From a virus (taxonomy: Duplodnaviria; Heunggongvirae; Uroviricota; Caudoviricetes): 64,000 nucleotides of DNA. Positions 2,113 through 62,630 of this stretch are shown in pieces. Position numbers and translations under genes: made by a program. The stretch's first letter is position 1. Every line of letters begins with the position of its first letter. The stretch is taken from positions 1 through 64,000 of the IMG/VR virus record IMGVR_UViG_3300001528_000192; one strand, written 5' to 3'. A model generated the notes under the pieces. It made no database searches. It was not told the origin of the DNA and saw only the letters and a list, made by a program, of their open reading frames with translations.

Positions 2113-2130
2113 ATTGCTAAACTTAGTTAG

Positions 2131-5456: not shown

Positions 5457-5466
5457 TTTTTTTTTA

Positions 5467-6381: not shown

Positions 6382-6385
6382 AATA

Positions 6386-39449: not shown

Positions 39450-39471
39450 GGGGGGGGGGATAAAAAAAAAA
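39450..39471. repeat. Homopolymer pair G10 then A10
   Basis: The sequence gag gggggggggg a t aaaaaaaaaa lies between the AT-rich plus-strand gene and the following minus-strand gene. Confidence 0.7.
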
Positions 39472-39482
39472 GCTAACCCAGA

Positions 39483-39746
39483 TTACTCTGGATCAGCTTC
39501 AAATGATTCAATTGTTTCCTTAAAGTCTTTAGTTTGTTCTGGATTGCCAGAATGATCTCTAACAGATAAGATATTAAGTGCATCTTCAAAATTAATATAG
39601 AATTGTTCATCTGTTAGCTTTAGTCTCTCTGCCTCATCAGCAGCTAAGGTAGCCATGTGTAATGCAGCTTGACACATAGTCCAAACTCGATTCTTTTCAT
39701 TTGGAAATCTACCTGATTTAATCAATTTCATTAGTTCACTTCTCAT
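39483..39746 (-). CDS. Hypothetical protein
   Basis: 87-aa ORF. Confidence 0.45.
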   Translation of the reverse strand: MRSELMKLIKSGRFPNEKNRVWTMCQAALHMATLAADEAERLKLTDEQFYINFEDALNILSVRDHSGNPEQTKDFKETIESFEADPE

Positions 39747-39763: not shown

Positions 39764-39835
39764 TCGCCCCACTCAGACTCGAACTGAGACGTGCGGTTTT
39801 AGAGACCGCTGTGCTAACCATTACACCATAGAGCA
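39764..39835 (-). tRNA. Amber suppressor tRNA, anticodon CTA (reads UAG); tRNA-Gln-like body
   Basis: The sense sequence is TGCTCTA TG GTGT AATGGTTA GCAC A GCGGT CTCTAAA ACCGC ACGT CTCAG TTCGAGT CTGAG TGGGGCG A. The 5-bp anticodon stem pairs perfectly and the 7-nt loop CU-CUA-AA puts CUA at positions 34-36. The D-arm TGGTGTAATGGT is almost identical to that of tRNA-Gln(TTG) at 29860-29930. Confidence 0.8.
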
Positions 39836-39875: not shown

Positions 39876-40316
39876 TTAAAACTTTTCATAAAGTTCAACC
39901 ATATCTTGAATTTTATGTTGTAGATGCAAACAAATAACATCAGTAGAAATGTCAATCATTTCTTCTACTTCCTGTGCTTGGTCTGCATCAAACTTCTCCA
40001 AATCAAGAAGCTTATTAAACTTATTTAGATCAAGTTTAGATTTGAGTTCTTCTACTACTTCTACAAAGGTAGTATCATCAAGTGCTTTAATATTGTCTTT
40101 GTAGTCTTTAACAATTTCTTTGGTATCAGAATCATCAAATTCTCCATTACATTCAGGAACGTTTGCTTCTATCTCTATTTTAAGATGTCCATTATCTTTT
40201 TCTAAACGACATTTTAAATCATCACTTTCAAATGTCTCTACAGTTCCGTCTGGAATACATAAACCTAATATATTCGTGAGGTCTGGAAGTTCATTAAAAT
40301 TAATAGTTTTATCCAT
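39876..40316 (-). CDS. Acidic hypothetical protein
   Basis: 146 aa, rich in Asp and Glu. Confidence 0.5.
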   Translation of the reverse strand: MDKTINFNELPDLTNILGLCIPDGTVETFESDDLKCRLEKDNGHLKIEIEANVPECNGEFDDSDTKEIVKDYKDNIKALDDTTFVEVVEELKSKLDLNKFNKLLDLEKFDADQAQEVEEMIDISTDVICLHLQHKIQDMVELYEKF

Positions 40317-40394: not shown

Positions 40395-41275
40395 TTAAGA
40401 TTTAAACTTACCTCCATTTTTAAGAGTAAATCCCTAACTAGTCCAACTTGGGACAGTCTAAAGGTTGAAATCTAATAGTTTGGGTTTCCTAAAGAAAGTT
40501 AATCCAACGTTACCAGGAGATACATCATCAACTACTATACTTCCATTGGTATATGCTCTATATTGTACGTTAGGATCGTTAACTTTTCTAAAGCCACTCT
40601 TCTACATAGCCTTATCTAACTTATCTACATATTTTGGAAAAGTTTTCTCACTGAGAACTTTCACCTTTTTCTAAATGAAAGTTGGAAATCTTCTAGTCCC
40701 ATCCTTCACATAGCCTACAAACTTTAGAGGGAGAGAGTTTGGAACTGCATTTCTCTTTAACATTTCACCGCTGCCAACCTAAGTTATTTTTCCCACAGTA
40801 GTAGGAGAGTTTCTTATTACAAGGGCTTCAGAACCCTATCCTATTTTATAAGGGGTTAAAGTAGATAACTTACCAACTGTAGCCCGCCTAGTAACAGCCG
40901 GAAGAACACCTTTAAAGGAACTTACAGGTCCTGCAGTTATAAGAGAAGTTCCTATGTTCTTTACATTATCTTTAGCATAATTAAAATTGGACTATATCTT
41001 CTACTAGTCTTCTTCCTTAGAAGGGTCATAATGAGTTTGGCGTCCAAATATTCCATATCCAAAGAAATTGTTATTGTAGAAGTTCTACATATTCTAGTAA
41101 TACTTAGCTTTATCTGCATCATAGATTACTGCTTGATTCTTTCTAGCAGCCTCCTACAATTTTCTCTATTTAATTCTATCTTGCTATTCTTTAGTAAGTT
41201 GGAATGCCATTGGTTGACCTCTAACAACTCTTGTATTATCCTATACTGCAATCCCACCTCTCTAAAACTTAATCA
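40395..41275 (-). CDS. TAG-recoded gene, hypothetical protein (about 293 aa, about 17 in-frame TAG)
   Basis: ATG at 41275 (MIKF[Q]RGGIAV[Q]DNTRVV...) runs to TAA at 40395-40397. The translation is coherent only when TAG is read through. Its start overlaps the stop of the upstream small membrane protein gene. Confidence 0.5.
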
Positions 41276-41490
41276 TGCATTTTACCTTTCCAAATTCCAG
41301 TTACTGAATCTATACCTAATAATAAGCATACTGCATATATAAAAGGTTCTATCATTAGAGGGGCCTGAATAGAAGATATAGTACAATAGACTAATACAAA
41401 GATGATAATAAGGAATCCGATTACCCCACAAACTCTCTTACTACTAATACCAGAGTGTGAGGTAATCATCAGTCTAAGAAAATCCTTCAT
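41269..41490 (-). CDS. Small membrane protein (holin-like, 2-3 transmembrane helices), no TAG
   Basis: 73 aa, reading ...VCGVIGFLIIIFVLVYCTISSIQAPLMIEPFIYAVCLLLGIDSV. Confidence 0.45.
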   Translation of the reverse strand: MKDFLRLMITSHSGISSKRVCGVIGFLIIIFVLVYCTISSIQAPLMIEPFIYAVCLLLGIDSVTGIWKGKMHD

Positions 41491-41522
41491 AAAATTAAAA
41501 GTATAATTATTACCTAGAGTAG

Positions 41523-41714
41523 CTATCCTATAGCTCCACCTATCATAGTAGCTGCTATGTCTAGCCAGTCAAACTTACCTCCATACTGTTTATCTTTAAA
41601 TTCCATTCCAAATGCACATCCTAATACAGCTAGTATAGTAAATACTAACCCAATAGGAATTGCATATAAAAGATGTTTCGGACGATTACTTTCTTTCAAC
41701 CACATATTATGCAA
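41523..41714 (-). CDS. Small membrane protein (holin-like), no TAG
   Basis: The protein reads ...LLYAIPIGLVFTILAVLGCAFGMEF...WLDIAATMIGGAIG, which gives two transmembrane helices. Confidence 0.45.
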   Translation of the reverse strand: MHNMWLKESNRPKHLLYAIPIGLVFTILAVLGCAFGMEFKDKQYGGKFDWLDIAATMIGGAIG

Positions 41715-42819
41715 AATTTAATTTATTTCCGAAGAACCAATTAGCCTCCAATTGTCTTCTCTTTATAAGTCCTTTCTATATCTTACCATTACCTCTTGCT
41801 GTAATACCTGCCCTAATCCACTTATTATAAATAGCTTGAGGATTATTCCAGTTCTGAACAATAAATCTTCCAAACTCTCCATTTGGGCTAGCCCAATTAC
41901 CAGAGGCTGATATAGAAGATAATGCATCTATTTTATCCTAAGTTACATTAGGTAATCCTGCTAGCACCTGTTTCCATTCTTCAGCCTTCTTATTATAGAA
42001 GGCATTAAAGATGTTGTCCCATCTTTCTTTAGAAAACCTAGTACCTGCCTTTATAGGTGGAGCCCCCGGTTTATCAAATTCTCTAGTCATGCCATATGCA
42101 CCAGTAGCAAAAGATTCTCCAAACTATGTATTCACTTTAGCAGTTTGGGATCCCCCTTCCATCCTTTTAATTTGGGAAGCCATCTGCTAAGATATACCAT
42201 TAGCGAATGTACTAATGCCGTTGGTAACCCCTCCCAAGATTCGTCTAATACTTTTGATTTCTAAGTTAGGAAGGGGTCTTTCTACTATTCCTAACTTCTT
42301 TCCAGCAGCATCTATAATATATATCTATCCGCTCTCTATTCTACTTATAAGTCCTATGTGCTATCCACTAGGACTATTCTTACTTCCAAACCAGATTACA
42401 TCTCCAGGCTTAGCCTATTGAAGACTAATTTCCTAACCTATCTTACCCTACTGAGCAGCAGTCCTAGGTAGATTAATTCCTACACTATTAAAGACATACT
42501 TTATAAGACCACTACAATCAAACCCAGAACTTGGACTAGAACCTCCCCAACTATATTTACCTCCTAAGAATTGTCTCGCTTGGTTAATTACCTACTAAGC
42601 CATAGAAGAGCTATTCTCAGATTTAGAAGGAGAATAACTGAAGGTAGGTTCTTGTATATCCTACTAAGGAGTATCTAGGAAACTCCAATCTATGCCGGAA
42701 TCTTCTACGTCCTAAGTAGGCTATTGCATTAATTGTATTTCCTGATAATTCTACTATACATCAGGGGTAATTATGTCTGGAGGAGATACAGATTCAAATG
42801 TTGTAAATAATTCAGCCAT
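41706..42819 (-). CDS. TAG-recoded NlpC/P60-family cell-wall peptidase (endolysin-like)
   Basis: With TAG=Q the protein reads ...QFLGGKYSWGGSSPSSGFDCSGLIKYVFNSVGINLPRTAA[Q][Q]GKIG...PGDVIWFG...[Q]HIGLI, the NlpC/P60 Cys/His core. The two consecutive TAG codons sit where the family has Gln-Gln. The end coordinate is approximate because my manual frame count is off by one somewhere. Confidence 0.55.
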
Positions 42820-42821: not shown

Positions 42822-43646
42822 TTAAAATTTATATAATCCATTTATAATATCACTAAATAATATATGAGGAATTTCGGGATTTTCCTAATCAAGAATAGAT
42901 TTATAGGAAGTCGCTAATTTCTTTCCATACGGATTCTCATATGAATCATTTATTAAGATGTGACTAATATTTCCTTCTGGCTATCTCATGTCCCTAACAA
43001 TAATAAATGGTCCATCAGAATAAAAACCACCAGGTGCAGCAGTACTAGTTTTATCCCCGATTAAACTGCTAGAGTAAAAAGGTCTGGTAGTATCGTATCC
43101 ATGCTTATTCATCATCCTAGCAACAGCTAAGGCTTCTGAATCTCCCTATTTAGACATGCCGTGTCCTACATAGTGTAATGGAACTCTCTACCTTTCAAGA
43201 GCCTGCTTCAGAAATTCTCCCTGCATAAACCTATCATCTTTATTTATACCTCTTCTAAAATCTAGCATATTTTTAGGAGATATTTTAGTTCGGTCAATAA
43301 ATCCCTATAATACTTTCAAATACTCCCCCTTTGGCACTAATTTAATTGCTTTTATAACTCCTCCTAGCTGGTGTTTCCAAGTTCTGGCATTAGCAGCAAA
43401 TGTAGCTCTTTTCCTAATCTTAGGATCAGAACTATTTTTTCCCCTCTAAATGCAGACATCAGTTACATTTCCCCCACAGTACTCTGTAAATTTACCTCTA
43501 TTCTATTTTTTAATATGTATCTTATGTCCTTTCTTGTAAAGCTCAATTGGATCTGAATAATTCTCTAACTTTAAAGGGAGATTAAGCTAAGAAGTATCCT
43601 TGAAAAACTAAGAAAACTCTGTTAATTGATTCTAGGTATATTTCAT
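42822..43646 (-). CDS. TAG-recoded gene, alpha/beta-hydrolase-like protein
   Basis: ATG at 43646 (MKYT[Q]NQLTEFS...) to TAA at 42822-42824 is exactly 275 codons. It contains HYVGHGMSK[Q]GDSEALAVA, a G-H-x-x-S nucleophile-elbow-like motif, and about 14 TAG. Confidence 0.45.
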
Positions 43647-43814
43647 ATTAGATTTTGTTAAAAGTAACACATACTTTATTTGAGTATTCAAATTTAATAT
43701 TTATATTTGTATAATTGAAATGAATATAACTCATAAGTTAAATAGAAAATTCCACGTATAAATATATTTGTACAAACTCAAGGACTAACAGATTAACTAT
43801 ATAATATCTAACAA
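43647..43814. promoter_or_regulatory. AT-rich divergent intergenic region (probable divergent promoters for the minus-strand lysis cassette and the plus-strand late module)
   Basis: A 168-bp gap of roughly 80% A+T lies between the divergently oriented genes starting at 43646 (minus) and 43815 (plus). Confidence 0.3.
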
Positions 43815-44087: not shown

Positions 44088-44957
44088 ATGAAAATTGATA
44101 AGCAGAATGGAACAGTTGCGTTCAATGACCAAGAGCATATCTATTGGAATGTAAATGATAATAAAAGATATGTCTCAGTTACTACTCTAATTCACAGATA
44201 TACTCAAGAATTTGATAAGGAATTTTGGTCTTCTTATAAGGCTTTGGAAAAATTACTTCCAAAGAAGTCGTGGGAAATAGAAAAGAAGTCTCTATTAAAT
44301 ACTAAGAAGTTCAATAAGGAATTGTTAAGTTTATATGATATAGACGAGAATGATTTCAATGCAGTTCAGCAAGGCATCTTAGATGCTTGGGATGAGGAGA
44401 ACAGGAAATCATGTGAAAGAGGAACTAAGATACACTCAGAGATAGAAAACTCCTTTTACGACCACCCAACAGATATTTCTTTAAAGAAGTTTGGTTTGGG
44501 AGGAAAATTTGAGTGTAAGAAAGACTACTCGGAATTAGATTTAGAGCATGGAGTGTATCCAGAGTATTTGATATATAGGGAGTCAGACGATGGGATCTTA
44601 CGAATAGCAGGACAGGTGGATCTTATAATTAAGTCAGGAAATGAAATAACAATTGTAGACCACAAGACGAATAAGAAAATTGATCAAAAGTCTGGATTCA
44701 ATACAATTACTAAATCAAATGCTAAGATGAAGTATCCATTGAATAATCTAATGGATTGTAATTTTTATCATTACACTTTACAACTCTCCACTTATGCTTG
44801 GATGCTTCAAAAGATAAATCCAAACTTTATAATTAAAGATTTGATTTTAAATCACTATGACCATAATGGAAATAATACCTTATATCATTGTGAATATCTA
44901 AAGCATGATGTAGAGAAAATGTTATATCATTATAAGAAGAGTCTCATTTTGGAATAG
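44088..44957 (+). CDS. PD-(D/E)XK exonuclease-like protein (YqaJ/Cas4-like fold), standard code
   Basis: 289 aa. GQVDLIIKSGNEITIVDHKT supplies a D...D-x-K motif. It has no in-frame TAG. Confidence 0.55.
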   Translation: MKIDKQNGTVAFNDQEHIYWNVNDNKRYVSVTTLIHRYTQEFDKEFWSSYKALEKLLPKKSWEIEKKSLLNTKKFNKELLSLYDIDENDFNAVQQGILDAWDEENRKSCERGTKIHSEIENSFYDHPTDISLKKFGLGGKFECKKDYSELDLEHGVYPEYLIYRESDDGILRIAGQVDLIIKSGNEITIVDHKTNKKIDQKSGFNTITKSNAKMKYPLNNLMDCNFYHYTLQLSTYAWMLQKINPNFIIKDLILNHYDHNGNNTLYHCEYLKHDVEKMLYHYKKSLILE

Positions 44958-45158
44958 AAAAGAAATGCAAGAAAAAGAATAGAATATTAATCATTGTTAA
45001 GGGCATATTGAATCCCAATCTTGGATTAAATGTCAACACTATATACTAAAACAGTCTATTCTTTTTCTTTTTATTTTTAGATTATGAATGTATTTGATAT
45101 TATCAATGGTCATGCAAAAGAAGTCCTTAACCTTAACTAGGACTTAAGTAGTAATAGA

Positions 45159-46198: not shown

Positions 46199-47572
46199 AT
46201 GGCTAATAATTGGAAGTATGGGGATTCCTACTTTGATGGGAACTCTTATAAAACAAGAGCATAGGCGTTTGCTGCTGCTAGGAAAAGTGGTAGAGGAGTA
46301 TTTACTTATAAGGGAAAGCAATATAATACAATGTAGAAAGGGGAAAATGCTGATGACTTTAGAAGGAATCATGCAGACTACGACTATTTCCTTGGAAATG
46401 TTGCTAGTGACTAGGGAGGATGGAAACCTTCTGATCCAGTTCAAACTTCTTATAAAGTAAATAATGTTCCAGAACCTATGAATCCAGACGCCTCACCAAA
46501 ATCTGGACAGTTAGGAGAGGCTGTAGTTACAGCTCAGAAGCAGCCACTACAAATGTTTACAAAAGATGATATTAGATCTCTAGGATTTAATAATTACTAG
46601 GGATTACTTAATGCAGTAAGCAATAGAAATAATTGGAACAATAATTTCGTAAAGGCTCTAAATAATAGATTTGGAACTGATTATGCTAACTGGAAGCAGG
46701 AAGACATAGAAAATGCATTAGGAGTGAAGGGAAAGTATAGATCATTTGGGGGAGGAGACTTTGGAGATATGTCTCGCAGTATGGCAAGCTGGATGGGAAC
46801 ATACAATGGAAATCTCGAAAGGAAAAATCTGCAAGATAGAACTGGATCAGACGGGATAGTCTATTCCAATAAACAAGTAAGAGATCTATTTGAAGCACAT
46901 CCTGTAAAGCCTAAAACATTTACTTTTGACACTAATTCCTTTGGAACTAATCTATTTGGAACGCCAAAGAAATAGTAGGGAGGACAAATTAATATGAATG
47001 AACAACAATTACAATAGGCATTTCTATAGTATCTGATGTAGAAGACTGGAGCTCAAAATGAGCAGCAACTAGAACAAGTTGTTTAGCAGTTGGGTGAAGA
47101 TGGATTGAAACAAGCATACGCTCAATTCATGCAAGAAATGCAGCAATAGCAAGTTCAAGCTGCCAAGTTTGGAGCTAAACTAAATTACATTAAGAAACTT
47201 AATGGACAATGCCCTGAAGGAATGGAAATGCACTATTATAAGCAGGGAGGTAGGCTTTGCAGGAAATGTATGCAGGCTAAACAAAATGGAGGAGAACTAG
47301 AAACACCTTCTAATCCTATTGATGCCTTTAAATGTGGAAGAAAAATTAAAAAGAATCAACAGGGAAGAAAATTTCCTTTGATTGAAACTGACAAGAATGG
47401 AAAGAATAAGAAGGTCTATTATAAGGATGAGGCAACTAGAGATTCTATTGCAGCAAATCGTTACAATGATCAGGAAGTGCAAGTAAATAGACCTGGCTCT
47501 TACAAGAAGAATGCAAAGGGCAAGGTTCAATGGACTCCTGATAGAACCAAGGCACCTTATAAGAGAGACTAA
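46199..47572 (+). CDS. TAG-recoded Gln-rich protein with a C-terminal zinc ribbon
   Basis: ORF-track fragments 46724..46975 and 47222..47572 share the frame of the ATG at 46199. Reading TAG=Q gives ...NEQQLQQAFLQYLMQ...QFMQEMQQQQVQAAKF...CPEGMEMHYYKQGGRLCRKC. Many Gln residues are TAG-encoded, interleaved with CAA/CAG. Confidence 0.5.
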
Positions 47573-47698: not shown

Positions 47699-48193
47699 TT
47701 GGAACCAAATAGAAATAAATGCAAAGAAGACCCAAGTGGATTAATGGGTCTTCGTGCATTTAGAGAGTTCACTTATATATGGCTTGCCATATGTTGGAAG
47801 TCTGTGTATAGTGAATATGATGAACAGGTTAGGCACCAAGAGTCCCTAAAGGATGCAAACTTAACAGAAGAGGAATTTAATAATCCAGAATTTAGAGCAG
47901 CATGTAGGAAGTTTAGGCAGATATAGGAGTCTAATCTTTCCATTAAAATGCTACATGCTGCACAGGAAACTGTTAACAAGTTTATAGAATACTTTAATTC
48001 AGTAGATCCTTTAGAGAGAGATGAGTAGACTGGAAAACCAGTATATAAAGTTAAAGATATTATGGCTGAACTAAGTTCTTTAGGAAAGGTTCATGACGAA
48101 CTTGTTGACTTGGAGAGTAGAGTTAAGAAGGAGTTAACTGAACAATCTTCCGTTCGAGGAGGGGCTATAGATGGATATCAACCTAACTTTTAA
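47699..48193 (+). CDS. TAG-recoded hypothetical protein (possible small terminase position)
   Basis: MEPNRNKCKEDPSG... continues through two TAG to TAA at 48191-48193. It lies immediately upstream of the large terminase gene. Confidence 0.4.
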
Positions 48194-50463
48194 TGGTTAT
48201 GGAAGAAGTTAAAAGGAAAAGAGGACGACCTAAAAAGGTTAAACTCCCAGAGGAAATAAAGACTTTGGTACAAGAAGTTAAGCAAGAATAGAAACCAGAC
48301 TTAATTAAAGTAGAGGAATCTGTTCCAGAACCAGAAAAATCTTCAGAGTGGGACGTTCCAAAGGGGGAATATATAAAATTCTTCGATAAAAGGCTTTCTT
48401 ATGAGCTAACAGGCTATAAACCAATTACTGAAACTTAGGGGTTGGATTTTGATCCAAGTTGGTTCACCGTTGCAAGGGATACCTACATAAGAACTGGAAA
48501 GTATTGTAGCTATAGAATATACAGTAAACCTTATAATGATTTCTGGCATGAAGAATACCGTAGATGTCGAGAAGGGTATACTGTAAATGGATATACTTTA
48601 ACTGGTCCAAACTATTATTACCTCAACTACTATCAACTTCCTAATATTGATGTTGAAATAGCAGGTAGTGGACGTAGTTAGATATTTCCTAAGTTCTTGG
48701 TATTTCAGTATGAGTTCTTTCACTACTTTGAGATATGTAGAAGGGAGAAAAAGGATGTATGTTTAATGAAGTCCCGTGGTATTGGATTTAGTGAAATAAA
48801 TGCTGCCATTTGTGCATGCATTTACAATTGCTTCAGAAATAGTAAGTGTATGATTACCACGAGTTTATCTAACTATTTGGAGAAATCTCTTGATAAGGTA
48901 TGGAATGCACTTAGTTTCGCAAATGAACATACTTAGGGAGGACTTGCTAAACTTCGCCAGGCTAAGGACACATAGTTCTTAAAAAGAGCATCTACTTTAG
49001 TAAAGGATTCAAATGGTATAACATCTGAAACTGGATGGATGTCTTAGATTGAAGGAGTAGTAGCTGAGACTGATGCTAAGATAAGAGGCGACCGTATTGA
49101 TTTACTAGTATATGAAGAGGCTGGTTCTAATTCAGTCTTAAGAAAATCATACATTAAGGGAAAAGCCCTTATATATATTGGAGGTACTAAGTTTGGAATT
49201 AGACTTGCGGGAGGTACTGGTGGAGATAAAGGTGCAGCTTTATAGGGACTTAGAGATATATACTATGACCCAAATGGATTTGACGTCCTTCCGTTTTATC
49301 ATAATTATACAGAGGGTGGAGAATGGGTTTATACTGGATACTTTATTCCATCATACATAGGTGCTATTACAGAGTACGGTACTGATATTAACGGAGTAAG
49401 ACGACAATTACTCGATAAAAGAGGCTATTGCTTATGGAAGAATTATAAGGAGTAGCTAGATTTGGATAGGGCTAACCTTTCCTCTAATCCTAGAGCATTA
49501 ATTGATCACTCTGCTGAGTATTGTTACACAGCAGAAGAAGCGTTTGCTTTGGAAGGTGATAACAAATTCAATAAAGTAAATATTGCTGAATAGCTTACAA
49601 ATATACGTGCATTGAAGAAATGTCCCCCTATAGAAAGAGGTTATATTGAATATAAATTCAAGGATGGAGCCCATGTTTAGTAGAATATAGATGGCTTCAA
49701 GTGGATTCCTAATTAGAGTAGTAAACTCTAGATATTAGAACACCCAATATGGACTTTGCCCCCAGTTGAGGACGAGAACGGAAAAGTAACTTGGAGACCT
49801 CCTACTGAAAAAGTTAGAAATTTATATGTAATAGGAATAGATGGTATTGATATAGGCGCAGCCCAAACTTCTGAAGCTACAAAGGATCCATCAGACTTTT
49901 GCCTTGTTGTTTACAAGAGAGCATATGGAATGGAGGAACCAAAATTTGTAGCACTTTATAAGGATAGACCTAATGATGTTAGGGAATGCTATAAGATAGC
50001 TATTAAACTAGCATAGTATTATAATGCTGTTATAAATATAGAGGCAACCAGATAGAGTATAATCCCATATGCGAGAGAGAGAAAGCTTCTTAATCTCTTT
50101 ATGAAGAGACCTAGGGCTACTCTTGCAGACTCTGCTAGGAATACTAATAAACAGTATGGAACTCCAGCAACTCCAGCAATTATAGATCATCAAACAGATT
50201 TAATAGCTGATTATATAAATGACTATTGTCACCTTATATGGTTTGATGAAATGCTTGATGAGTTCAATAGGTATACTGATGAGAATAAGAAGAAATTTGA
50301 TATTGTTGCAGCAACAGCAATGGCTTTGTTAGCAGATGAGGAATTGCAAGGAACAGTACCTAAAGTTGTAGAGGAAGTCAAGGATACCTGGCAAGATATA
50401 GGATTTTACACAGATGAATATGGAAGAAGGCGCTATGGAACACTCCCAAAACACGCTTCTTAG
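48193..50463 (+). CDS. terL: TAG-recoded terminase large subunit
   Basis: Five ORF-track fragments (48442.., 48697.., 49756.., 50101.., all with start%3==1) fuse with the ATG at 48193 when TAG is read through, about 13 TAG in total. Motifs are KSRGIGFSE (a deviant Walker A typical of terminases), DLLVYEEAG (Walker B) and VIGIDGIDIGA...DPSDFCLVVY (the RNase-H-like nuclease domain). Confidence 0.7.
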
Positions 50464-50494
50464 ATACGATTTAATAATAATTTTGGATAGTTAT

Positions 50495-50803
50495 ATGACG
50501 ACTTAGGACCTAGAACAAGTAATACAAGACTATATTCTGGATATTTATCATAAGAAATATATAGGTAGAATGGTCATAGAGAAACTAAATCCAGTAGGAT
50601 ACTGCATTAAGCTAGGGATGGATCATGATCACTAGCCAATAGTTATTTACGCAGAACTAGAGGATGATAAGTTTCTTAAATTCCTCAGGCAAGAACTTAA
50701 GGATAGGCGTTTCAACCTAGTATACTATGGTAAACTATAGTTAACTTACCCATATGATTGTAATCCAATAAATACAGCATGTAGTTGTCATGACAAAGGA
50801 TGA
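50495..50803 (+). CDS. Small TAG-recoded hypothetical protein
   Basis: MTT[Q]DLEQVIQDYILDIYHKKYIGRMVIEKLNPVGYCIKLGMDHDH[Q]PIVIY...CSCHDKG ends with TGA at 50801. Confidence 0.3.
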
Positions 50804-52970
50804 ATTAATAGAGAAAACGGACAAGGCAATATCTGAACTAGTCTACCCTAAATATGATTTATAGAAAGCATATAACTACTATAATGGTGTAAGAGATTCA
50901 GACTAGTTCAGATACCTAGAGGAAGTGTATGGAGCAAATGCTCCAACTACATTACATTTCACCCCTTTAATAAAGAAACATATTGATGCCCTTATAGGAG
51001 AGTACTTAGGAACTCCTATAATTCCAAAAATATTTTGTAAGGACAGTGAAACAATAACCAATATAGATAGAGAGAAGCAATTAAAGATCGCTTCTGAACT
51101 CCATGAGTATTTGAAGAATCATCTTAGAAATTCTGTTCTCAACTTTATAGATGGAAAGAATATCAATGATGGTCTTATTGAGTAGCAACTGAAGAGAATA
51201 GTGGAAGATATAAATAATACATTTGTATCAGAATATGAGATTGCTGCATAGAACGTAATAGAATATATTATGCAATCTAGAGATACTGATATCATTACAG
51301 TATTAAGAGATCTTCTTCTAGATCTTTTAATTACTGGATATGCCTTTTATAGAGTTCTACCTACAGTAGAAAATAATAGCATTAGAATCTAGGCTCTAAG
51401 CCCATTAAATACTTTCATTGATAGAAACTTTGAATCTCCATATATTAAAAACTCTTATAGAGTTGTTGTAAGAAGCTGGATGACTAAAAACCAAATCCTA
51501 AATGAATATGGTAAAGAAATGAAAGCATCTGATAGAAAACTTTTAGATGAAAAGTGGGATTCTGTTTACGAAAATGCTATGTACTACGTCAGAATGGGGG
51601 AAACCAATGGTATTCCAAATACAGACGGTGTTCAAGCTGGAGTAGAAGTTACTCCTGGCTATCCTGATAGTAAGTCCGGACTAACTCATGAACTTATCCC
51701 CGTTTACGAAGTAGAATGGTTAGAAACTGACAAAGATTTCATAATGCAGAGATATAGAACAGTTAGAATTGGAGAACAAATCTATATACTTAGGGGGAAG
51801 GATGAAAAAGTTATGAGAACTAAATCTAATCCTTCTTACTGCAGTCTCTCTGTTAATGGTATATATTTTTTGAATAGAGGAACGAAACCTTATTCAATGG
51901 TTCTAGCCTGTGCTCACCTCCAAGATTAGTATGATCTTCTGAACTTTTATAGAGACAACCTTATTGCTAATAGTGGTACAGTAGGGGACTGGATTGATTT
52001 AACATTAATTCCTGCTGAGCTAGGTGTAAATCTTCCAGAACGACTTATAAAGTGGTAGGCTCTGAAGAAACAAGGGCTAGGAGTTCTTGATTCCTCTTAG
52101 GAGGGACGATTGGCTTCTGGGCAAGCTCCATTAAATACTATTTTTAATGGTTTTGATAATACTGTTAAAATGTAGGCTGTTCAAGCTATATAGGTAGCAA
52201 TAGATGCTATAGAGCAAACTACCTCCTCTATTACTGGAGTCTTTAGAGAAAGGCTTAATGGTATTGAGTAGAGAGATGCTGTGACTAATGTTAAAATTGG
52301 ATAGAACAACTCATTTATTATAACTAAATAGTATTATCACTAGATGGACTTAATAGTAAATGAGATGCTATTAGACTGTTTAAATCTTGCCAAAGTTGTA
52401 TTCAAGAATGGATTAACTGGAACTATTATACTAGGAGATAAGTATCAAAGAGTATTTACTGCTCTTCCTGAATATTTTACAATAACTGATCATGATATTA
52501 GGATTGTTACTAGTACTGATATTGTGAAGGATTTGGAACAAATAAAGAATATTATTCCTGAATTTGTTAAATCTGGCGGTCTCCCTCCCGACATTATTAT
52601 TGAAGCCATAACTAGCAAGAGCTTACCAGATCTTAAGTACAAGGTAAGAAAAGCTATGCAAATCTAGAAGGATGAAAATAATTAGATGTAGCAACTAAAT
52701 TAGCAAAATTAGTAGCTCTAGTAGTAGCTCTAGGAAATGTAGAAACAGTTACAGGAGGCTCAGAAGAAAGTAGAATCTCTTAATCAAACTAAACTACAGC
52801 TTGAACAAAAGCAGCTTGAATAGAATTATAAGATTGAAATGTATAAGGCTAATACAGATAGGTCTTATAAGGAGGCTACTGTTGAGGAGTAGAAAAGAAG
52901 AACTTAGGTTGAAATAGCGCAGTTAACAGATGGGAATCCTTACAATGATAAAATTAGACAAATTGATTAA
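50790..52970 (+). CDS. TAG-recoded large virion protein, portal-like by position, with a TAG-dense Gln-rich C-terminal tail
   Basis: Fragments 50925.., 51480.. and 52344.. (all %3==0) join from the ATG at 50790 to TAA at 52968-52970, about 726 aa. The assignment as portal rests only on its position after terL and its size. Confidence 0.4.
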
Positions 52971-53686
52971 TGGAACTGAAAATTAAAATAATTACTTGTA
53001 ACGCCTGTGATAATTGTAAGGTTACTGTGCAAGACAATAGCACTTATTTATCAGAGGATAACATAGGAACTGTTAAGGGAAAATTTAAATTCTCCGATAC
53101 AGTGTCTATAGATATACTTTAGCTAAACAAGTCTTAGGAATCTGTATACTTGAACCCTACATTTACTGATCATTCTTCGTTGAATAATTCTACCTTATAG
53201 GTATCTTCTGATGGATGGTATAGTCTAGTTCATATTGTACTTCCCTCTAAGGAATGGTTTAATAGAGAATTAGAAAAACAAGACGGTTCTGCTCTAGGAT
53301 TGTATAATATAGTATACTTTGCAAGCGATAATAAAGTATATAAATATATAAATGGCAGTACATCAGAAGTTGATTTATCTGAAGTACTAGAAGTAAATCC
53401 TGTAAATACAACAATTTCGAAAACATCAGAAGACTTTGTATCTATTTGTTTTTTACGAAAATGTTATATAAATTTGTGCAAGCAAATTCTAAACGATAGA
53501 GGATTCTCCTCTTGTTGGAATAAAAATAAGATAGATAGTGAATTAATATATAAAAGAGATCTAGTCTGGATGGCAATTAATGTCATAAAATATCTCACAG
53601 AGTGTGAACAGCTTGCGGAAGTTGAGAGACTAGTTGAGATAATTAATGGATGTAATGGCTTATGCTCTTCGTCTAGCTCTTCTTAG
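52970..53686 (+). CDS. TAG-recoded hypothetical protein
   Basis: MELKIKIITCNACDNCKV... runs through three TAG into ORF-track 53300..53686. Confidence 0.4.
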
Positions 53687-53890
53687 AATAGTAGTGGATG
53701 TGGATGCTCTAAATAATTTAAAGAAAAAGGTATCTGAGGAATTTTTCTAGCTCATGTGTAAAGTTAGAAAAGGATACAAACCAGACTATGAATTTATATT
53801 AGAAGAGATTTCTTTTATAGACCTAATAAAGAATAGGGAAATAGATGATAAATTATCTTTAACTGCATTATAGTACTATTTAAATAACAA

Positions 53891-55690
53891 ATGGCAGATA
53901 ATTCAATCTTAACTCCAGGATGCTAGGATACCATAGACACTCCTACAACTGTTGATGAATCTGTTCAATATTTAGAGAAGGATAACTTCCTATCTGAGTA
54001 TGAAAATGAATCAGAGAAATCAGTAGTAAGGGAAAATCTAAATGTGTATCCAAAGAATGCAGTATATACCAAGGATGAAACTGATGCCAACATTGCTACA
54101 ACAGTAACAACTGCTGTCAATAAGCATCTTAGTGTTGAGGATCCTCATGGAACCTTGGATACTGTAAGAGAGATGATTGCAGACATGGCTAAAACAGATG
54201 GAAGTACTCCATTTACATCTCCTCAAGTTGGAGTTGAGCCTGTTTCTGATAGTCATCTAACAACAAAGAAATTTGTAACTAGATTATTAAATGAGCATAC
54301 TAGATTAGTTGGGTCTGATGATCCACATAAAATATTGCCAGAGGTAGAAACTATTTTAGAAAAATATGTTAAGTCCTCTGATGTGTTTACTAAGTCCTAG
54401 CTTTATACAAAGCAAGACGTAGATAATTTGTTAAAAGCTTTCTTAAAGAAAGACGGAAGTACTCCATTTACTATCGCTCAGATAGGAGTTGACCCAACTA
54501 TAGATAGTCATCTAGCCACCAAGCGGTATGTAGACAAGACTCTCTACGCCCACTTGGTAGATGTTGACCCTCATGGTTTCTTAACTATATTAAATCAAAG
54601 ATTAGCTTCTTATGCCAAGATAGCTAATGTATATGATAAGACTCAAACATATTCTAGAAGTCAAATTGACGCATTTATCAACAAATGGGTTCAAGAAGCC
54701 GTAGCAGAAGCTATTGCAGAATATATGGAGACAGTTGATGATAGATTTGAGTCTATACGTCAAGACAGATATGTTAAGCAAGATGGATCAGTTCCATTTA
54801 GAAACCCTCAAGCGGGTGTTGATGCTATTGAGCCAGAACATCTAGTAACTTTAAAGTAGGTGGAAGATAGGACTTCTGAAATAAAGGAGGACTTAGAATC
54901 TAAAATATAGGACAAGGAATGTTTATGGATTACATCTGGTCCAGTAGAATCCACAGTCGGGCATGTTGAAGATAATACTCCTATGCCTGCTACTATGACA
55001 TTACAGGAAGTATGTGATGCTATATTCTATGGCAAAGGTATTTGCATGGAGGTACCAGACTATGTAGTTATAACTAAGAAATGTCCTGTTACTCTATGTA
55101 TTCATGGATCAACTGGTTTGGTATAGGTTGCTCAACTCTTCCAAAATGGAAAGTTAATTTATACCTTTACTGGTGATGATTTCAAGGATGGATGTATAAC
55201 TGTAGACAGCGAACCTCTTCTAGAGGATGCCGAATTTGTATTCAGAGTAACTTATACAAATGGTTCTGTCCACGAGGAAACTGCTACAGTAAAGTGCTAT
55301 ATGCCTGTATTTGTTGGATTACTCCCTAAGTGGAAAACAGGAAGTACAATTACTATGGATTATTTAATCCAGTTATGTGAGGAGGATACAGAAGGAACAT
55401 AGAATCGATTCATAAACTATGGAGGAGACTTGAAATCCTTTACATTTAAGTATGTATTCTCAGATGCTTCCCTTCGTCATCCATTCATTGTACTCCCAGA
55501 GGCATATCCAAATCTAGACACCATGGTAACTAAGTCATAGAGTTTTGGAATTGATGCTTTCGATGTAATTAACAATATTCCTCTATCCGTACCAGGAGTG
55601 GAAAAAGATATTATATTTAAAGTATATATTTATAGGTAGGCTTTAGCTACCCTTAACTAGGAAGTAACATTTAATTTTGAAAGTAAATGA
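53891..55690 (+). CDS. TAG-recoded structural protein with three tandem ~45-aa repeats
   Basis: The ATG at 53891 joins fragments 54044..54400 and 54428..54859 (%3==2) and ends with TGA at 55688-55690. The repeats read DGSTPFTSPQVGVEPVSDSHLTTKKFV, then DGSTPFTIAQIGVDPTIDSHLATKRYV, then DGSVPFRNPQAGVDAIEPEHLVT. Confidence 0.45.
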
Positions 55691-58600
55691 GCCAGTTTAG
55701 TGAAATGATGGGTAGCTTTATAAGGACTGGTAATTATCCTATGGAGGCTAATTACATATTCCCTACAGAAGCTGCTCTAAAAGAATTTTACAATGATCCT
55801 ATTAATGCTACAACTCTTCATAAAGGTCTGCTAAAAGTAGTGGAAAATGGTGGAGATGGAAAGCAAGCATTATATTGGGTTGTTAAAAAGCAGACAAATG
55901 ATGACTTAGAGTTTGTCAAGCTTATAGAAAATATAGATATAGATACTATTGATGGACAATTAGAAAGCCTTTAGAAGGAACTTGAGGAAGAAATCAAGAA
56001 TAGAAAAGATGGAGAAACTGCCATCTGGGGAACCAATGATCCTACTAATGTACCTGAGGAACTGAACAGTTTATTGGACTTAGCTACCGCTGTAACTAAT
56101 CTTATAAAGGAAGTTCAAGATATTCATAAAGAATTGATTGACTCAGATGAATCAATTCATAAATCTCTAAAGACAGAAATAAAGGCAACTGTTGGAACAC
56201 AGGAGGATGACATTGTTTCTTACCTAAAGACTCTTCCTTATAAATCTCTTACTGAAGCGGCTAATGCTCTCAACAAGTTCCTTAATACCACTGATGCTGA
56301 CTCTAATTAGATAAATACTCTTCCAGAACTTTAGTTCTTCTTAGAAGGGTATACTGATACTCAGAAGCTGCGTCATGTGCTATTGGACTTACAGGCAGAG
56401 ATACTGGGAAATCCTCTTCCTACATAGGAATTTAGAACTCTTCGTGCTATAGAAGACTTTGTAAGAATCTTAAAGGCTGATTCTGAAACATCTGACAAGA
56501 ACATACAATCTGAATTAGACAACACTCAAATTGGTGTTGGACTTAGTGGAGATGGCTCCTATAATGCTGACAAGGAGACTTACTACCTAAAAGATGCAAC
56601 ATCCATAATGAATGCCCTTAAGGTGTTAGATTCCTTGATGTATGAAGCTCTTAAAGGTATTACTATAAAGGCTAGTAATGAGGATGTAGTTGACTTAAAT
56701 GTTAGGAAGGAATTAGAGGGATATGTGATAGGTGCTAAATTGAACCTGTCTAATGTACTTGGAAATGACCTTATAAAGAAGGAAGATGGACTTTACTTCA
56801 ATGTAAAATCTACATATAATAATGGAACTCTTTCTTTATATGTAAACGATAAGTTAGTAGCTCAGCATATTCTTGGATTCTCATCTATTGTTGAGTCTGC
56901 TTTCTACGATTCGTCTAATGAATCAATTGTTATAGTCTTTAAGCTACTTAGTGGAGAAAAACAAACTATTACAATTCCAGTTGGTACTCTTATAAGAGAG
57001 TTGGAAGTGGATAATTCTCAACCTGATAAAGTTGTTGAGCTAGTTAGAGAAACAGTAATTGATGGAGCTGATAAGTTATCTGCTGACGTTCGCATACATT
57101 CTGATAAGCATAATATTCTTAAAAAGGTTGGAAATACTTTATCAGTAGATGGAACTACTGATAGTATTACTCATAATGATAAGACTTTAAGTTCTGTTAT
57201 TGAAGAGATAAAGACTACAGAATCAGAATCTACTTCAACTCTTACTCAGAAAATTAACTCAGAAGTAGATAGGGCTAAGGCAGAAGAAGAGTCTATAAAA
57301 GCCTCTTTAGAAGAAGTAAAGGATAATACAGACAAAGCAATTTCAGATCTAAAATTAAAAGATTCTGAAATGCAAGCGGCAGTATTAGCTGAGACTAATA
57401 GGGCTACAGAGGCAGAGAATAATTTAAAGACTTCAGTTCAAGATCTAAAGGACTCTGATTCAGCTATTAAAGAATCAATTGAAGAAATCAAGATCTCTGT
57501 TTAGAACAATGCTAGGGAGATTACTTCTACTAAGAATCTAATAGGACTTGAGGCAGAAAGAGCTCAAAGTGCAGAGGAAACTCTAACTCAAAGAGCTAGC
57601 GCTATAGAAGCTGAGTTAAGTAATATTAGTAAACAGTAGGTAGATACTGGTAAGGAAGTTGTTTCCCTAACTAATAAGTTGGATGCTGAAATTACTAGAT
57701 CTACTAATAAAGACTCTGAACTCTCTGATGCAATATCTAAAGAAACTGCTAGAGCAACTGAGCAAGAGAAAATATTATCCACGGCTTTAGATACAAAAGT
57801 TGGAGCTGTAACTATAAAGAAAAGTGAAGTAAGCGACCTTTAGTATGTTCTTTACGTTGACGGGAAGGCAGCTGGGGAGATAAATATTCCTGACGATCAA
57901 TTCCTGCAGGATGTAAAATATGACACTACAAGCAAGAGCTTAGTGTTCACCTTTATAACCAAAGAAGGCACTAAGGTGGTATCCGTTAGTCTTTCTGACT
58001 TAATTGATACATATACTGCTGGAGATGGTTTACAACTAGAAGATAACAAGTTCTCTGTAAGGAAATGCCTAGGAAGTCAGAAATATCTTGAGATTTCTGC
58101 TGACGGACTTAGCATCGTTGGAATTGACGAGGCATTAGCATTAAAATCAAACGTCGGAGATTCTTATACAAAGTCAGAAAGTGATGCAAAGTATTTAACT
58201 GAACACTAGGATATTAGTTCTCTTGCAACCAAGGACGAAGTAAAGGTAGTTTCTGATGAAATAATGAAAGTCAATTCTAACCTTTAGAAGGAGATAGAGA
58301 GAGCTACAACTGCAGAAACTGATTTACTTCAGAAAATTGGAACTAAAGTTGAATCGGTAGTTCTTACTAAAGTTACTGACCTTAAGTATGACATAACCGT
58401 AAACGGAGTTAGCATAGGTCAGATTGACATTCCTAAGGACTAGTTCTTGAAATCAGTTACATTAGAGGGGAAATCTACTTTAAGGTTTGTTTTCGAAACA
58501 ACTACTGGTACTGTTGCCACAGATATAAATCTAGAAGATGTGGTAGCCGATGCTTTAGCAGAATTAGAGGCTAAGGTCAACAAGAAAGCAGATATTGATT

Positions 58601-58842
58601 CTCCGGTATTCACTGGAGTTCCTCAAGTAGCTGTATCTCCAGATGCTTCTGACTCCTCTCAAAGGATTCCATCTACTAATTGGGTTAGAGATAGGATTCA
58701 AGAGGAAGTTTCTAAGATAGATGTAACAGCATATATTACTAGAGCAGATGTGGAGAAAATGGTGGCAAAGAAAGCAGATTTAGTAGACGGCAAGGTTCCT
58801 TTGTCCCAACTCCCAGTAAATAATTGGATAGACGTAGAATGA
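55687..58842 (+). CDS. TAG-recoded large tail-fiber-like protein (about 1050 aa, coiled-coil rich)
   Basis: Fragments 55687.., 56074.., 56608.., 57943.. and 58447.. all lie in frame 1 and fuse via TAG. It has long heptad-like acidic coiled-coil stretches and a VSLSDLIDTYTAGDGLQLEDNKFSV module. Confidence 0.5.
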
Positions 58843-60632
58843 ACAACGATATTAAAAGACCTCAAGGAATGAGCCAGTTGGATTACCTCTGGCTCAACTT
58901 TGGAGGTAGGCGTATAGAGAATGAAGCGTCTACAACTCCACAAGAAGACGTATTACTTACAGAAAAGGCTCTAACTGAGCTAATATAGAAATCAACTAAG
59001 GGAGGCATAACTAGCCTACTGTTTGATGATGATCCACTAGATAGTACTATGACTCGTTTGGCTGGTCAGACTTTAGATGGCTCAATCATTACAGTAGTTA
59101 AGATGCCTAAAGAAGTACATGTGGTATCATTTGTTGGAAGAAAGGCTACCCAGGTTGATGTAGATAATGGATTTAAATTCCCAGTAGGTTCTAAGGTACT
59201 AGCAATTACTTTAAGTAATGGAGAAGAATTATTAGTTAGCTTAGATGAATTAAATCTAGTAATATCTGGAGGAGAAACTGATACTATTATCAATGAAGTT
59301 GGAGCAACCGGAGTTGTAAGTTCCAACCTTAAATTGGATAAAGGAAATAATACACTATCCGTAGTTAAGCTTAAAACGTCTAATACTGGATTATATGCGA
59401 CCTTGGATCTTTCTTAGAAAGAATCTGGAGTAGTACTCTCTAAAGAATCAGACGGTTTGCTAGCACAAATCCCTCTTGGAACCACAGGATACAATATTAA
59501 GTTTCAGAACCTGACTTTATCAGAATATTTAAATATTCCTATTAAGGACTCTGGAACACTCTACTTCATTTCTGATGTGCCTTACATATTCTTAGGGTCT
59601 AGAAGGTATGGAGTAAATATGGAACCAGGAGAGGCTCCTATAGTATCTCTAGTTTATGATCCAGATACGATGACTCTCGCATATAAGAGATCTGATGAGA
59701 GTGACATAAGACTCATAAGTCTTGGTCCTGCAAGTGATATTGCAAATGGAATGATGTCTAAAGAGTAGTACATCGAATTAAGGACTCTTAAGACTGCATT
59801 AGACGGAATAGTAAATGTGAAGGACTATGTAGGGTCTCAGGTTAGTAAAGCTGCCATTAAGCTAGAATGGGGAGAGACAGTAGGAACCACTAGGAAACTC
59901 CTTTTAAAGAATGCACTAAATGACATTCTATCAACAGTTGATGTTGATACAGAAAATTATTTAAGCTTTGCTATCAGTAAGGTTGCTGAGGCTGATGATG
60001 TATAGGCTGCTGCTGCACAGGGAGTTGTTATAACAGAAGGGCAACAAATATTAATACTTACTCTAACTTCAGGAGATAAAGTCTATGTAAGTCTTTAGGA
60101 CTTAGTAGATGTTTACACTGGAAAGAACACTAAGTCAATTAATGTATCCATTTCTAAGTCCAATGAAATTAGTGCAGACCTGAACCTTAGTTCTGAGGAC
60201 AAGATGCTCTATGTTTACAAAGATGGGCTCGGATCTAATCTCCAAGTAGTAAGAAAGCCTGGAAAAGTAATAATCTATGGTAAGACATAGACTGAGGAAG
60301 ACAAACTTGGAGAATTTATAGTTGGAGATCCTCTAACACAAAGCATTTTTGTTAAGAGCTTTACAGCTGATACTTATAAGAGTTACCCTCCTAGGAGAGT
60401 TGATGGAAAGGAATATGATCAGTTAACTAATCCTCTAGTTGTTGGAGAACCTTATTTGATTATGAGCTTCAGTCTGGACACTGGAGATCCTTCTACTAGT
60501 TTTGTATATAATGACTATCTGTCATTGCAACCAATGATTAATAGCTTTACATTATCCCCAGAGAAGGGAAATATGTTAGAGAGAGATGAAAACGGATATT
60601 TATATTGTTCACTAAAATGGATTGACGTATAA
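58839..60632 (+). CDS. TAG-recoded tail fiber/spike-associated protein
   Basis: Fragments 59049.., 59457.. and 59817.. (frame 0) fuse from the ATG at 58839 to TAA at 60630-60632. It contains an ...[Q]DLVDVYTGKNTKSI module related to the SDLIDTY repeats. Confidence 0.45.
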
Positions 60633-61906: not shown

Positions 61907-61907
61907 T

Positions 61908-62630
61908 ATGGAATTTATAAAGAGTATTAATTATCAGGGAACAGGGCGTCCTATAGCTGCTGATTATGATGGAGCAGGTAATTTGATTAAGGATACTTAC
62001 GCTAAGCAGAAGGATGTAGATAAGTCAGTAGAAGATTTATCCAATGCCATAACTGCTGGAGGTGCTAATGCTGCTATAAGTCTTACTGAGACTTCATCTG
62101 CAACTTATGCTAAAGCTTATGTTATAAAATAGGGAAATAAAGAGGTTGGAACTATCAACATTCCAAAGGATATGGTCGTTAGTTCAGGTTCTCTTAAAAC
62201 TGTTACATCGGCAGATAATCCTTACACTGGAGCCAAGGTAGGAGATAAATACATTGACTTAGTTATCGCTAATGCTACTAGTGAGCACATTTACATTCCT
62301 GTATCGGATCTCATTGATACTTACTTAGCAGGGAACGGACTAACTCTAGAAGGTTCTACCTTCTCTATTAAGAAAGACACAACTAGTGAAAGTTATTTGA
62401 CTGTTGGCGCTGATGGAGTAAAGGTATCTGGAGTAGATAAGGCTTTAGAAGGTAAGGTTGACAAAGAGGATGGTAAGTCCTTGGTACTTACAACAGAAAT
62501 TACTAAATTAGCACAGCTAAATCTGCCAGACACAGAATTAAAAGAAAGTGAAAATACAGTTCAAAATAAGGCTGTTAAAGCAGCAATTGACGAGATAAAT
62601 ACTAAACTCACATGGACAATATTGGATTAA
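61908..62630 (+). CDS. TAG-recoded tail fiber protein
   Basis: Fragments 61908..62132 and 62172..62630 are joined by one TAG. It contains VSDLIDTYLAGNGLTLEGSTFSIKKD, the same module as in 57943... Confidence 0.5.

Follow-up and report, generated by a model that had tools for sequence, protein, structure and literature searches.

Late genes of crAss-like phages are recoded in blocks to genetic code 15 (TAG=Gln) and are accompanied by suppressor tRNAs (Yutin et al. 2021, PMC7886860), and proteomics has provided proof of the assignment TAG=Q in crAss-like phages (PMC9523058). A regulatory model has been put forward together with a 'code change module' placed upstream of the cassette for lysis, where a suppressor tRNA is joined by an aminoacyl-tRNA synthetase and/or a release factor (Borges et al. 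2021, 10.1101/2021.08.26.457843). Of 303 dual-code genomes, 225 have their Sup-CTA tRNA where the code switches (Mgcod preprint, 10.1101/2022.06.29.495998), and in the picture drawn there the recoded strand has this tRNA at its 5′ end. Zeta crAss-like phages are further known to carry a backup TAA after TAG stops (2025 Zeta paper, PMC12386605).

Here we analyse a window of 64,000 nt (the whole stretch of DNA under study, positions 1 to 64,000 of IMG/VR virus record IMGVR_UViG_3300001528_000192) that very probably derives from a dual-code phage, in which TAG would specify glutamine in the virion, packaging and lysis genes and would be decoded by the phage's own CUA tRNA, itself derived from a tRNA-Gln. 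As in the systems of Borges and Mgcod, the suppressor lies near a border between TAG-free and TAG-rich genes, beside an NlpC/P60 and holin-like pair, and its position is conserved in relatives. Unlike in the Mgcod picture, here the minus strand carries it, and its place is the 3′ (distal) end of a recoded block. The features of the locus are collected in Table 1.

Table 1. Features of the recoded regions, the suppressor tRNA and its surroundings (coordinates are those of the window).
Feature	Position	Strand	Size	In-frame TAG	Basis or remark
Phage tRNA-Trp(CCA)	2130..2202	-			Anticodon arm differs from that of the suppressor at 2/17 positions
Recoded island, three ORFs	4194..7423	-		10 each	ORF list
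Ordinary phage tRNA-Gln(UUG)	29859..29930	-			ARAGORN; U1, A73 and D-arm common to the suppressor
Terminator-like hairpin	39469..39500	-			14-bp stem and T-run; closes the unit with the recoded lysis genes and tRNA
TAG-free ORF	39483..39746	-	88 aa	0	Begins 17 nt past the tRNA 3′ end
Amber suppressor tRNA, anticodon CUA, probable tRNA-Gln ancestry	39764..39835 (about)	-			ARAGORN, Rfam, covariation
TAG-free acidic ORF	39876..40316	-	146 aa	0	Directly 5′ of the tRNA
Recoded ORF	40395..41276	-	293 aa	16	TAG is 73% of Gln-type codons
Holin candidate	41487..41705	-	72 aa	2	Two hydrophobic segments; adjoins NlpC/P60
NlpC/P60 cell-wall hydrolase or tail-lysin	41707..42819	-	370 aa	17	phrog_329; PF00877, 5.9e-20
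Recoded ORF	42822..43646	-	274 aa	10	
Divergent intergenic spacer	43647..43814	.	168 nt		Coding-strand switch between minus- and plus-strand recoded blocks
PD-(D/E)XK exonuclease	44088..44990	+	300 codons	1	TAG at codon 290
Recoded ORF	46199..47572	+	457 aa	11	
TerL (large terminase)	48193..50553	+	786 aa	17	phrog_6681, 6e-70; no in-frame TAA/TGA
Portal protein	50790..52970	+	726 aa	28	phrog_6547
More recoded virion genes, fibre-like	52970..64000	+		1-10 each	Block continues past the window end

The phage is a large, crAss-related, gut-type virus that may belong to the Zeta crAss-like group, which its features fit. Zeta crAss-like phages have genomes of 145–192 kb, many tRNAs, homing elements and amber or opal recoding (PMC7886860, PMC12386605). 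IMG/VR relatives of the present phage measure 145–197 kb, and the window, with a GC content of about 36%, carries HNH endonucleases as homing elements and about 23 tRNA genes (ARAGORN and Rfam taken together), Sup-CTA included. ARAGORN called 22 of these tRNA genes, every one on the minus strand. The window also contains an Rfam match to tmRNA, which ARAGORN in its tmRNA mode did not reproduce. Further likenesses to the Zeta group are inserts in TerL, seen in four related loci (L015, L027, L030 and L040), the apparent use of TAG as Gln in the structural/late part only, and TAG stops with a backup TAA in the standard part (PMC12386605), where two early ORFs end in TAG-TTA-TAA, the TAG stop being backed up two codons later. 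Its TerL is, besides, distantly related to annotated Crassvirales terminases (~28% identity, E about 1e-38). The phage differs from the Zeta references in that megablast of the 38–50 kb region returned no nucleotide match among INPHARED phages and in that the best INPHARED protein matches of TerL come from two unannotated human-faecal contigs (44–47% identity). More than 2600 homologues of TerL were found among metagenome proteins, on contigs of up to 182 kb.

Recoding is confined to two parts of the window. Stop-to-stop ORFs 100 aa or longer cover 0.61 of the window under table 11 and 0.86 with TAG as sense, and almost all of the gain falls at 4–8 kb and 40–64 kb; reading TGA as sense produced no comparable rise in ORF coverage of the window. 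Long single frames are thereby restored, as the initial annotation had proposed, and TerL, the portal protein and NlpC/P60 each become recognisable in one frame. In the curated ORF list, the region 40395–64000 holds 145 in-frame TAG in 20 ORFs (7603 codons; 19.1 per 1000 codons) and the island at 4194–7423 holds 30 in 3 ORFs (1118 codons; 26.8 per 1000), versus 11 in the 37 ORFs of the standard part (8134 codons; 1.35 per 1000), an enrichment with a Fisher p of 3e-37. The codon occurs in 19/20 and 3/3 ORFs of these two regions and in 6/37 elsewhere, which bears out the earlier claim that the island is recoded too. Within recoded genes, TAG accounts for 25–73% of the Gln-type codons, and TAA and TGA still act as stops. 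The proposal that all genes downstream of the tRNA are dense in TAG stands for most of the block, but the ORF at 43815–44057 has none and four others have one each (44088–44990, 45371–45961, 60632–61906 and 61908–62630). The first of these four, the exonuclease, keeps its 300-aa length in relatives without a TAG at codon 290. The middle ORF of the island shows a weak peptidoglycan-binding motif (PF01471, 22.9 bits), just below the cut-off.

Recoding is restricted to virion, packaging and lysis genes, in keeping with the initial proposal that code 15 is used selectively for late genes, 'late' being taken here from gene function. TAG is absent from genes for a NAMPT-like enzyme, an RNase H, an OmpA-domain protein, a flotillin-like protein, amidoligase and GATase proteins, an AAA ATPase and a glucosaminidase. 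The last of these, a glucosaminidase-type lysin at 21016–21537, demonstrates that not all lysis-type genes are recoded.

To which amino acid TAG corresponds was assessed at the level of codons. A tabulation of residues in 120 database TerL homologues, which gave 50% Q, was rejected as circular, because table 11 does not yield these proteins from their contigs; the gene caller had already treated TAG as readable. Instead, TAG was masked in 84 related loci, the late proteins of the window were aligned to them, and the actual codons opposite TAG were counted. The resulting 6618 TAG-versus-sense pairs comprise 31.7% Gln, 17% Glu and 10% Lys, and W, Y and L are almost never found opposite TAG. In the band of at least 85% identity, the Gln share is 77% (CAA 173, CAG 150, AAG 35, GAA 22). 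CAA is two changes away from TAG and yet at least as frequent as CAG, and the pattern is therefore not just one of mutational neighbourhood. Substitution profiles from the same alignments, whose counts are phylogenetically redundant, give Q the best log-likelihood, ahead of E by about 4000 units and of K by about 5100, a very large margin all the same. Taken site by site, 45 of the 112 testable TAG positions of the window have Gln as their plurality residue (E at 16, K at 9), and at 90 positions a true Gln codon is aligned at least once. Among control sites, Gln holds the plurality in 59.5% of those with CAA/CAG and in only 2–3% of those with E or K. TAG thus behaves like a somewhat less conserved Gln codon. 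The codon-level replacements show that it is evolutionarily equivalent to Gln, which is by far its best-fitting meaning, and the expectation that TAG positions align mainly with Gln in homologues is borne out at CAA and CAG codons.

The checks proposed in the initial annotation all turned out in favour of it. The CUA tRNA was called by two independent programs. ARAGORN places it at 39763–39835, and Rfam RF00005 matches 39764–39835, a length of 72 nt, with 55 bits (gathering score 29, E 4e-9). The acceptor stem is formed by U1·G72, G2-C71, C3-G70, U4·G69, C5-G68, U6·G67 and A7-U66, followed by discriminator A73; three of these pairs are G·U, and the first is U1·G72 rather than U1-A72. The D-arm (GUGU/AAUGGUUA/GCAC; sequence GGUGUAAUGGUUAGCAC) has an 8-nt loop containing GG, and G10 is present. 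The anticodon arm, GCGGU-CUCUAAA-ACCGC, combines a 5-bp stem with a 7-nt loop, C-U-CUA-A-A, that has U33 and a purine at 37. A variable region of 4 nt leads to the T-arm, CUCAG-UUCGAGU-CUGAG, with its TΨC-type loop (TTCGAGT). The clean cloverleaf and the loop CU-CUA-AA described from the sequence at the outset are thus both present.

Single-sequence RNA folding was uninformative (z = -0.9), as is usual for tRNAs, and we therefore turned to covariation to assess the cloverleaf. Fifteen sequences were aligned, 11 suppressor homologues from related phages and 4 tRNA-Gln. Cloverleaf pairing is present in 99.4% of cells, with compensatory changes on both sides at 13 of 21 pairs. None of 500 shuffles matched the observed cloverleaf, and no slid register came close. 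The suppressor is therefore a real gene under structural selection and not a pseudogene. An identical copy occurs in a related locus (L004), in which a 72-aa gene is also called at the place of the holin candidate.

The body of the suppressor points to a tRNA-Gln. Comparison with the phage's own tRNA-Gln(UUG) confirmed that U1 and the D-arm (ATGGTGTAATGG) are the same in both, the common stretch being AUGGUGUAAUGG together with U1. Overall, tRNA-Trp(CCA) comes closest to the suppressor among the tRNAs of the window, with 71% identity versus 64% for tRNA-Gln(UUG), because the anticodon arms of the suppressor and tRNA-Trp are nearly identical: 15 of 17 positions match, and the differences are C35-to-U35 and one stem base. 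To trace the ancestry, we looked for the D-arm motif TGGTGTAATGG(N1-2)AGCACA in bacterial genomes, with each species represented once. Among the 120 stretches listed, the motif lies within tRNA-Gln in 107 of 117 tRNA calls (77 UUG, 30 CUG); many of these tRNA-Gln come from Bacteroidota (Prevotella, Bacteroides, Porphyromonas, Tannerella) and also have U1 and A73. Among the aligned sequences the D-arm, U1 (15/15) and A73 are invariant, whereas the anticodon stem varies freely among suppressor homologues. The body is therefore best assigned to the tRNA-Gln type, with a likeness to tRNA-Trp that is local, and the suppressor appears to descend from a bacterial-type tRNA-Gln.

Classical amber suppressors charged with Gln are E. 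coli supE, a tRNA-Gln with a CUA anticodon, and su+7, a tRNA-Trp with a CUA anticodon that is mischarged largely with Gln. Given su+7, the Gln- and Trp-ancestry readings point to the same amino acid. The phage suppressor resembles supE and su+7 in its CUA anticodon with U35, its tRNA-Gln-type body and U at position 1, and like them it would compete with RF1. It differs in that supE and su+7 are laboratory point mutants with partial suppression, whereas the tRNA described here is phage-encoded, maintained and apparently the only tRNA that decodes a codon in heavy use. E. coli GlnRS uses G36, and the suppressor has A36 instead, which, like the U1·G72 start and the three G·U pairs of the acceptor stem and the Trp-like anticodon arm, counts against the reading put forward here. 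Among the scanned ORFs of the 64-kb window, which belongs to a genome of roughly 170 kb, we found no synthetase, release factor, GlnRS or amidotransferase for charging of the tRNA. The GATase-domain proteins at 14390–17146 were considered as charging enzymes and rejected; they sit with amidoligase-type genes and show no link to tRNA.

Several other explanations of these genes and their tRNA can be weighed against this evidence. The fragmented look of the region under table 11 is all that would be accounted for if the TAG-interrupted genes were pseudogenes, assembly artefacts or frames rescued by frameshifting or introns with no change of code. The TAG-rich TerL frame is free of TAA and TGA over its full length, as are those of relatives at 47–97% identity in which TAG stands elsewhere, the frames are conserved and functionally recognisable, and the same pattern recurs in independent assemblies; these observations effectively refute such an explanation, to which we attach next to no probability. 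The same negligible weight falls to a pyrrolysine tRNA, a reading that comes from the ARAGORN name 'tRNA-Pyl (cta)', a label given by convention to any CUA anticodon. tRNA-Pyl has an unusual compact shape, whereas the loops and stems of the phage tRNA are those of an ordinary, canonical cloverleaf; moreover, no pyl genes are present among the scanned ORFs of the window, and TAG aligns with Gln and not with Lys. That the suppressor inserts some other residue, such as Trp, or Lys, Glu or Tyr as one-step neighbours of TAG, is very unlikely. The closer overall identity to tRNA-Trp would favour this, as would E and K being second and third commonest opposite TAG. E and K, however, are the usual substitutes of true Gln codons too and fall far behind Q in log-likelihood, Trp, Tyr and Leu are nearly missing opposite TAG, the tRNA-Gln signatures reside in the invariant D-arm and U1 while the Trp-like anticodon stem is not conserved among homologues, and su+7 itself provides a precedent for Gln.

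A further explanation concerns the purpose of the suppressor rather than its identity. Its role could be mainly offensive, in that read-through of host UAG stops would damage host proteins, those of defence included, while the in-frame TAGs of the phage would be secondary and tolerated. Such a role has been proposed for crAss-like phages (PMC7886860) and also for Zeta phages in which a CTA suppressor is retained although nothing is recoded (PMC12386605). The two early ORFs with backed-up TAG stops look as if read-through were anticipated, and a phage tmRNA, if we speculate, could rescue ribosomes that run off mRNAs. We nevertheless regard a mainly offensive role as unlikely, given that TAG reaches up to 73% of the Gln-type codons in essential virion genes. 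TerL and the portal protein could not be made without the suppressor, which makes the decoding of phage genes indispensable, whatever else the tRNA may do; with essential genes dependent on the tRNA, anti-host read-through cannot be its sole role. The two roles are not mutually exclusive, and an anti-host effect may apply in addition to the decoding of phage genes, which is the reading that we carry forward.

The arrangement around the tRNA bears on how decoding might be timed. On the minus strand, the order is 43646–42822, 42819–41707, 41705–41487, 41276–40395, the 146-aa ORF, the tRNA, the 88-aa ORF and the terminator, and the plus-strand recoded block begins at 43815. The minus-strand recoded genes thus lie 5′ of the tRNA, which is downstream of them and not ahead of them, and the holin-like ORF and NlpC/P60 are 1.6–3 kb away on the same strand. 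According to the initial annotation, the tRNA sits exactly at the boundary between the two codes. It does mark the edge of the recoded block, but the TAG-free 146-aa ORF intervenes, leaving the tRNA one gene from the border, within ~560 nt. The terminator-like hairpin (39500–39469) is the only strong site of its kind in 39.3–44.2 kb. A scan for sigma-70 promoters around the tRNA gave 27 hits versus 20.8 ± 3.8 expected from shuffles, which is not above expectation, and we therefore claim no promoter.

The neighbourhood of the tRNA is shared with relatives. A 40-nt spacer with a hairpin separates the tRNA from the 146-aa ORF. From the window sequence alone, this hairpin is no better than shuffles, and a hairpin occurs at the same place in three lineages. 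The 146-aa protein has no Pfam or PHROG match, and its AF2 model (pLDDT 79, pTM 0.51) has no PDB match with E < 0.1; its 182 homologues all fall within this phage clade, and the ORF accompanies the tRNA in the closer clade of relatives. An upstream flank of 9 kb or more was available in 53 related loci, and 34 of these have a CUA tRNA 5.4–9.8 kb upstream of TerL. The flanks of 84 loci yielded 56 tRNA calls, 48 with the anticodon CUA, 5 with UUA, 2 with an ill-defined anticodon loop and 1 with ACU, and hence at most one ordinary elongator tRNA. In representatives at 47–94% TerL identity, the tRNA is located at the transition from TAG-free to TAG-rich ORFs. Many relatives thus carry the tRNA at the edge of the recoded block. 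As in the module of Borges et al., the suppressor is found by lysis genes; the synthetase and release factor of that module are absent from the scanned ORFs of the window, and the conserved neighbour here is the 146-aa acidic protein.

Under the dual-code reading, two codes would operate side by side. Standard-compatible genes, comprising auxiliary metabolism, the tRNA array and others, would make hardly any use of TAG, and virion, packaging and lysis genes would use it as a frequent glutamine codon with TAA and TGA as stops. The phage would supply the decoder, a tRNA(CUA) derived from a bacterial-type tRNA-Gln. Host glutaminyl-tRNA machinery would charge it with Gln, tolerating or preferring U35, and the charged suppressor would outcompete RF1 at UAG. 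Full-length late proteins would then depend on accumulation of the suppressor, and this dependence may delay or gate the production of virion and lysis proteins, which would give recoding a timing role. The tRNA would be transcribed on the minus strand in the distal part of a recoded lysis unit that extends from 43646 to 39469 and has a strong terminator at its end. Its shared orientation with the lysis genes and its distal place before the terminator suggest that it is co-transcribed with them. If the tRNA is distal in the lysis unit, any timing effect would act through tRNA accumulation and not through a separate early transcript. A location downstream of the minus-strand recoded genes fits poorly with a scheme of 'tRNA first, late genes later'.

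A more elaborate regulatory arrangement can be imagined, although we think it improbable. The TAG-free 146-aa acidic protein, the hairpin (kept in structure and not in sequence), the tRNA, the 88-aa protein and the strong terminator would form a small conserved cassette, with which the recoded lysis operon ends, in place of a lone tRNA gene set ahead of the late genes, and this cassette would act as a self-reinforcing late-transcription circuit and not as an early-to-late relay. Read-through of the hairpin, as an attenuator or a processing site, would set the supply of tRNA, and the acidic protein might target the machinery of termination, for instance by opposing RF1, or that of charging.

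For crAss-like and other gut phages, work published since 2014–2022 describes late genes with TAG recoded to Gln, a suppressor at the switch point and a proposed role in timing, with confirmation by proteomics, and the main elements of the system described here are already in the literature (Yutin 2021, Borges 2021, the Mgcod preprint, Peters 2022 and the 2025 Zeta paper). Conceptually, the locus adds little to that work; it provides a clean, internally consistent case of what appear to be two genetic codes in one genome with a decoder of its own. In practical terms, gene callers that use the standard code shatter the virion genes of such phages. Its additions are modest: codon-level and tRNA-ancestry evidence for this lineage, and the finding that some of the recoded genes lie upstream of the tRNA, an order that the simplest 'tRNA first' model does not fit.

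Suppressor tRNAs take several forms among the loci fetched from related phages. A second suppressor family, with an acceptor arm beginning TCCC, carries the anticodon CUA in some relatives (for example L047, L051 and L074), whereas its counterparts in L052, L075, L076, L078 and L080 bear UUA and differ from the CUA members in the D-arm and in other places. These UUA tRNAs lie on the minus strand, 8-10 kb upstream of the gene for the large terminase (TerL). With this anticodon, which is of the ochre type, they could decode UAA as well as UAG; no in-frame TAA was found in TerL of these five loci. A further variant, found in L011, L023, L050, L063 and L071, is a Gln-like CUA tRNA of 89-90 nt, in which a 17-nt insertion (AGCCCTCTGAAGGCGTAAG) occupies the variable-arm position of an otherwise normal Gln-type body.

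In the window, a hairpin ends approximately 5 nt ahead of the suppressor tRNA, and hairpins occur at the equivalent site in L005, L010, L016, L040 and L011. Three lineages are represented, with stems unrelated in sequence (AGCTACT/AGTAGCT, TTGCAGG/CCTGCAA and GGCAGCT/AGCTGCC). Judged from the window sequence alone, the hairpin is no better than shuffles. This pre-tRNA hairpin may serve in processing or in attenuation. The terminator hairpin is immediately followed by 10 consecutive T and these by 11 consecutive C (39450-39480, minus strand).

Two standard-code ORFs, 1293-1751 and 12591-13172 (both minus strand), end in TAG-TTA-TAA, placing a TAA two codons past the TAG stop. Such an arrangement would keep the damage caused by suppressor read-through small.

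Homing-endonuclease-like, RNA and tRNA features of the window
Feature	Position	Strand	Remarks
Homing-endonuclease-like ORF, HNH or endonuclease-VII-type	9272-9916	-	In-frame TAGs
Homing-endonuclease-like ORF, HNH or endonuclease-VII-type	26713-27330	-	In-frame TAGs
Homing-endonuclease-like ORF, HNH or endonuclease-VII-type	38480-39415	+	Adjoins suppressor cassette
Match to abiF RNA motif RF03085	27571-27608	-	Rfam, 50 bits vs 37-bit cut-off
Hairpin 5′ of suppressor tRNA	within 39836-39875	-	
Type-II-shaped tRNA, 85 nt, long variable arm	9982-10066	-	ARAGORN: Arg, anticodon UCU
tRNA, putative Thr	23932-24004	-	Rfam, 63 bits; anticodon UGU read by eye
tmRNA match, RF00023	20514-20976	-	Rfam, full model, 65 bits vs 47-bit cut-off, E 4e-23

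Both minus-strand homing-endonuclease-like ORFs carry their TAGs despite standard-code surroundings, and the second, which is HNH-endonuclease-like, is adjoined by the abiF motif. The third is the sole plus-strand gene of the first 40 kb. In L015, L027, L030 and L040, the TerL match is 3.3-3.45 kb long rather than the usual ~2.35 kb, the extra length being an insertion of intein or intron size. This agrees with the TerL insertions reported in Zeta crAss-like phages (PMC7886860).

Type-II tRNAs of bacteria are normally Leu, Ser or Tyr, which makes the identity of the type-II-shaped tRNA, labelled Arg by ARAGORN, doubtful; this tRNA is absent from the Rfam matches at gathering score, and comparison with the phage's own tRNAs gave no clear nearest isotype. 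The putative tRNA-Thr was detected by Rfam only and was not called by ARAGORN.

The tmRNA match is located within the tRNA array; ARAGORN in tmRNA mode found no tmRNA and did not reproduce it. In a phage that recodes a stop codon, a phage tmRNA could be relevant to the rescue of ribosomes after read-through.
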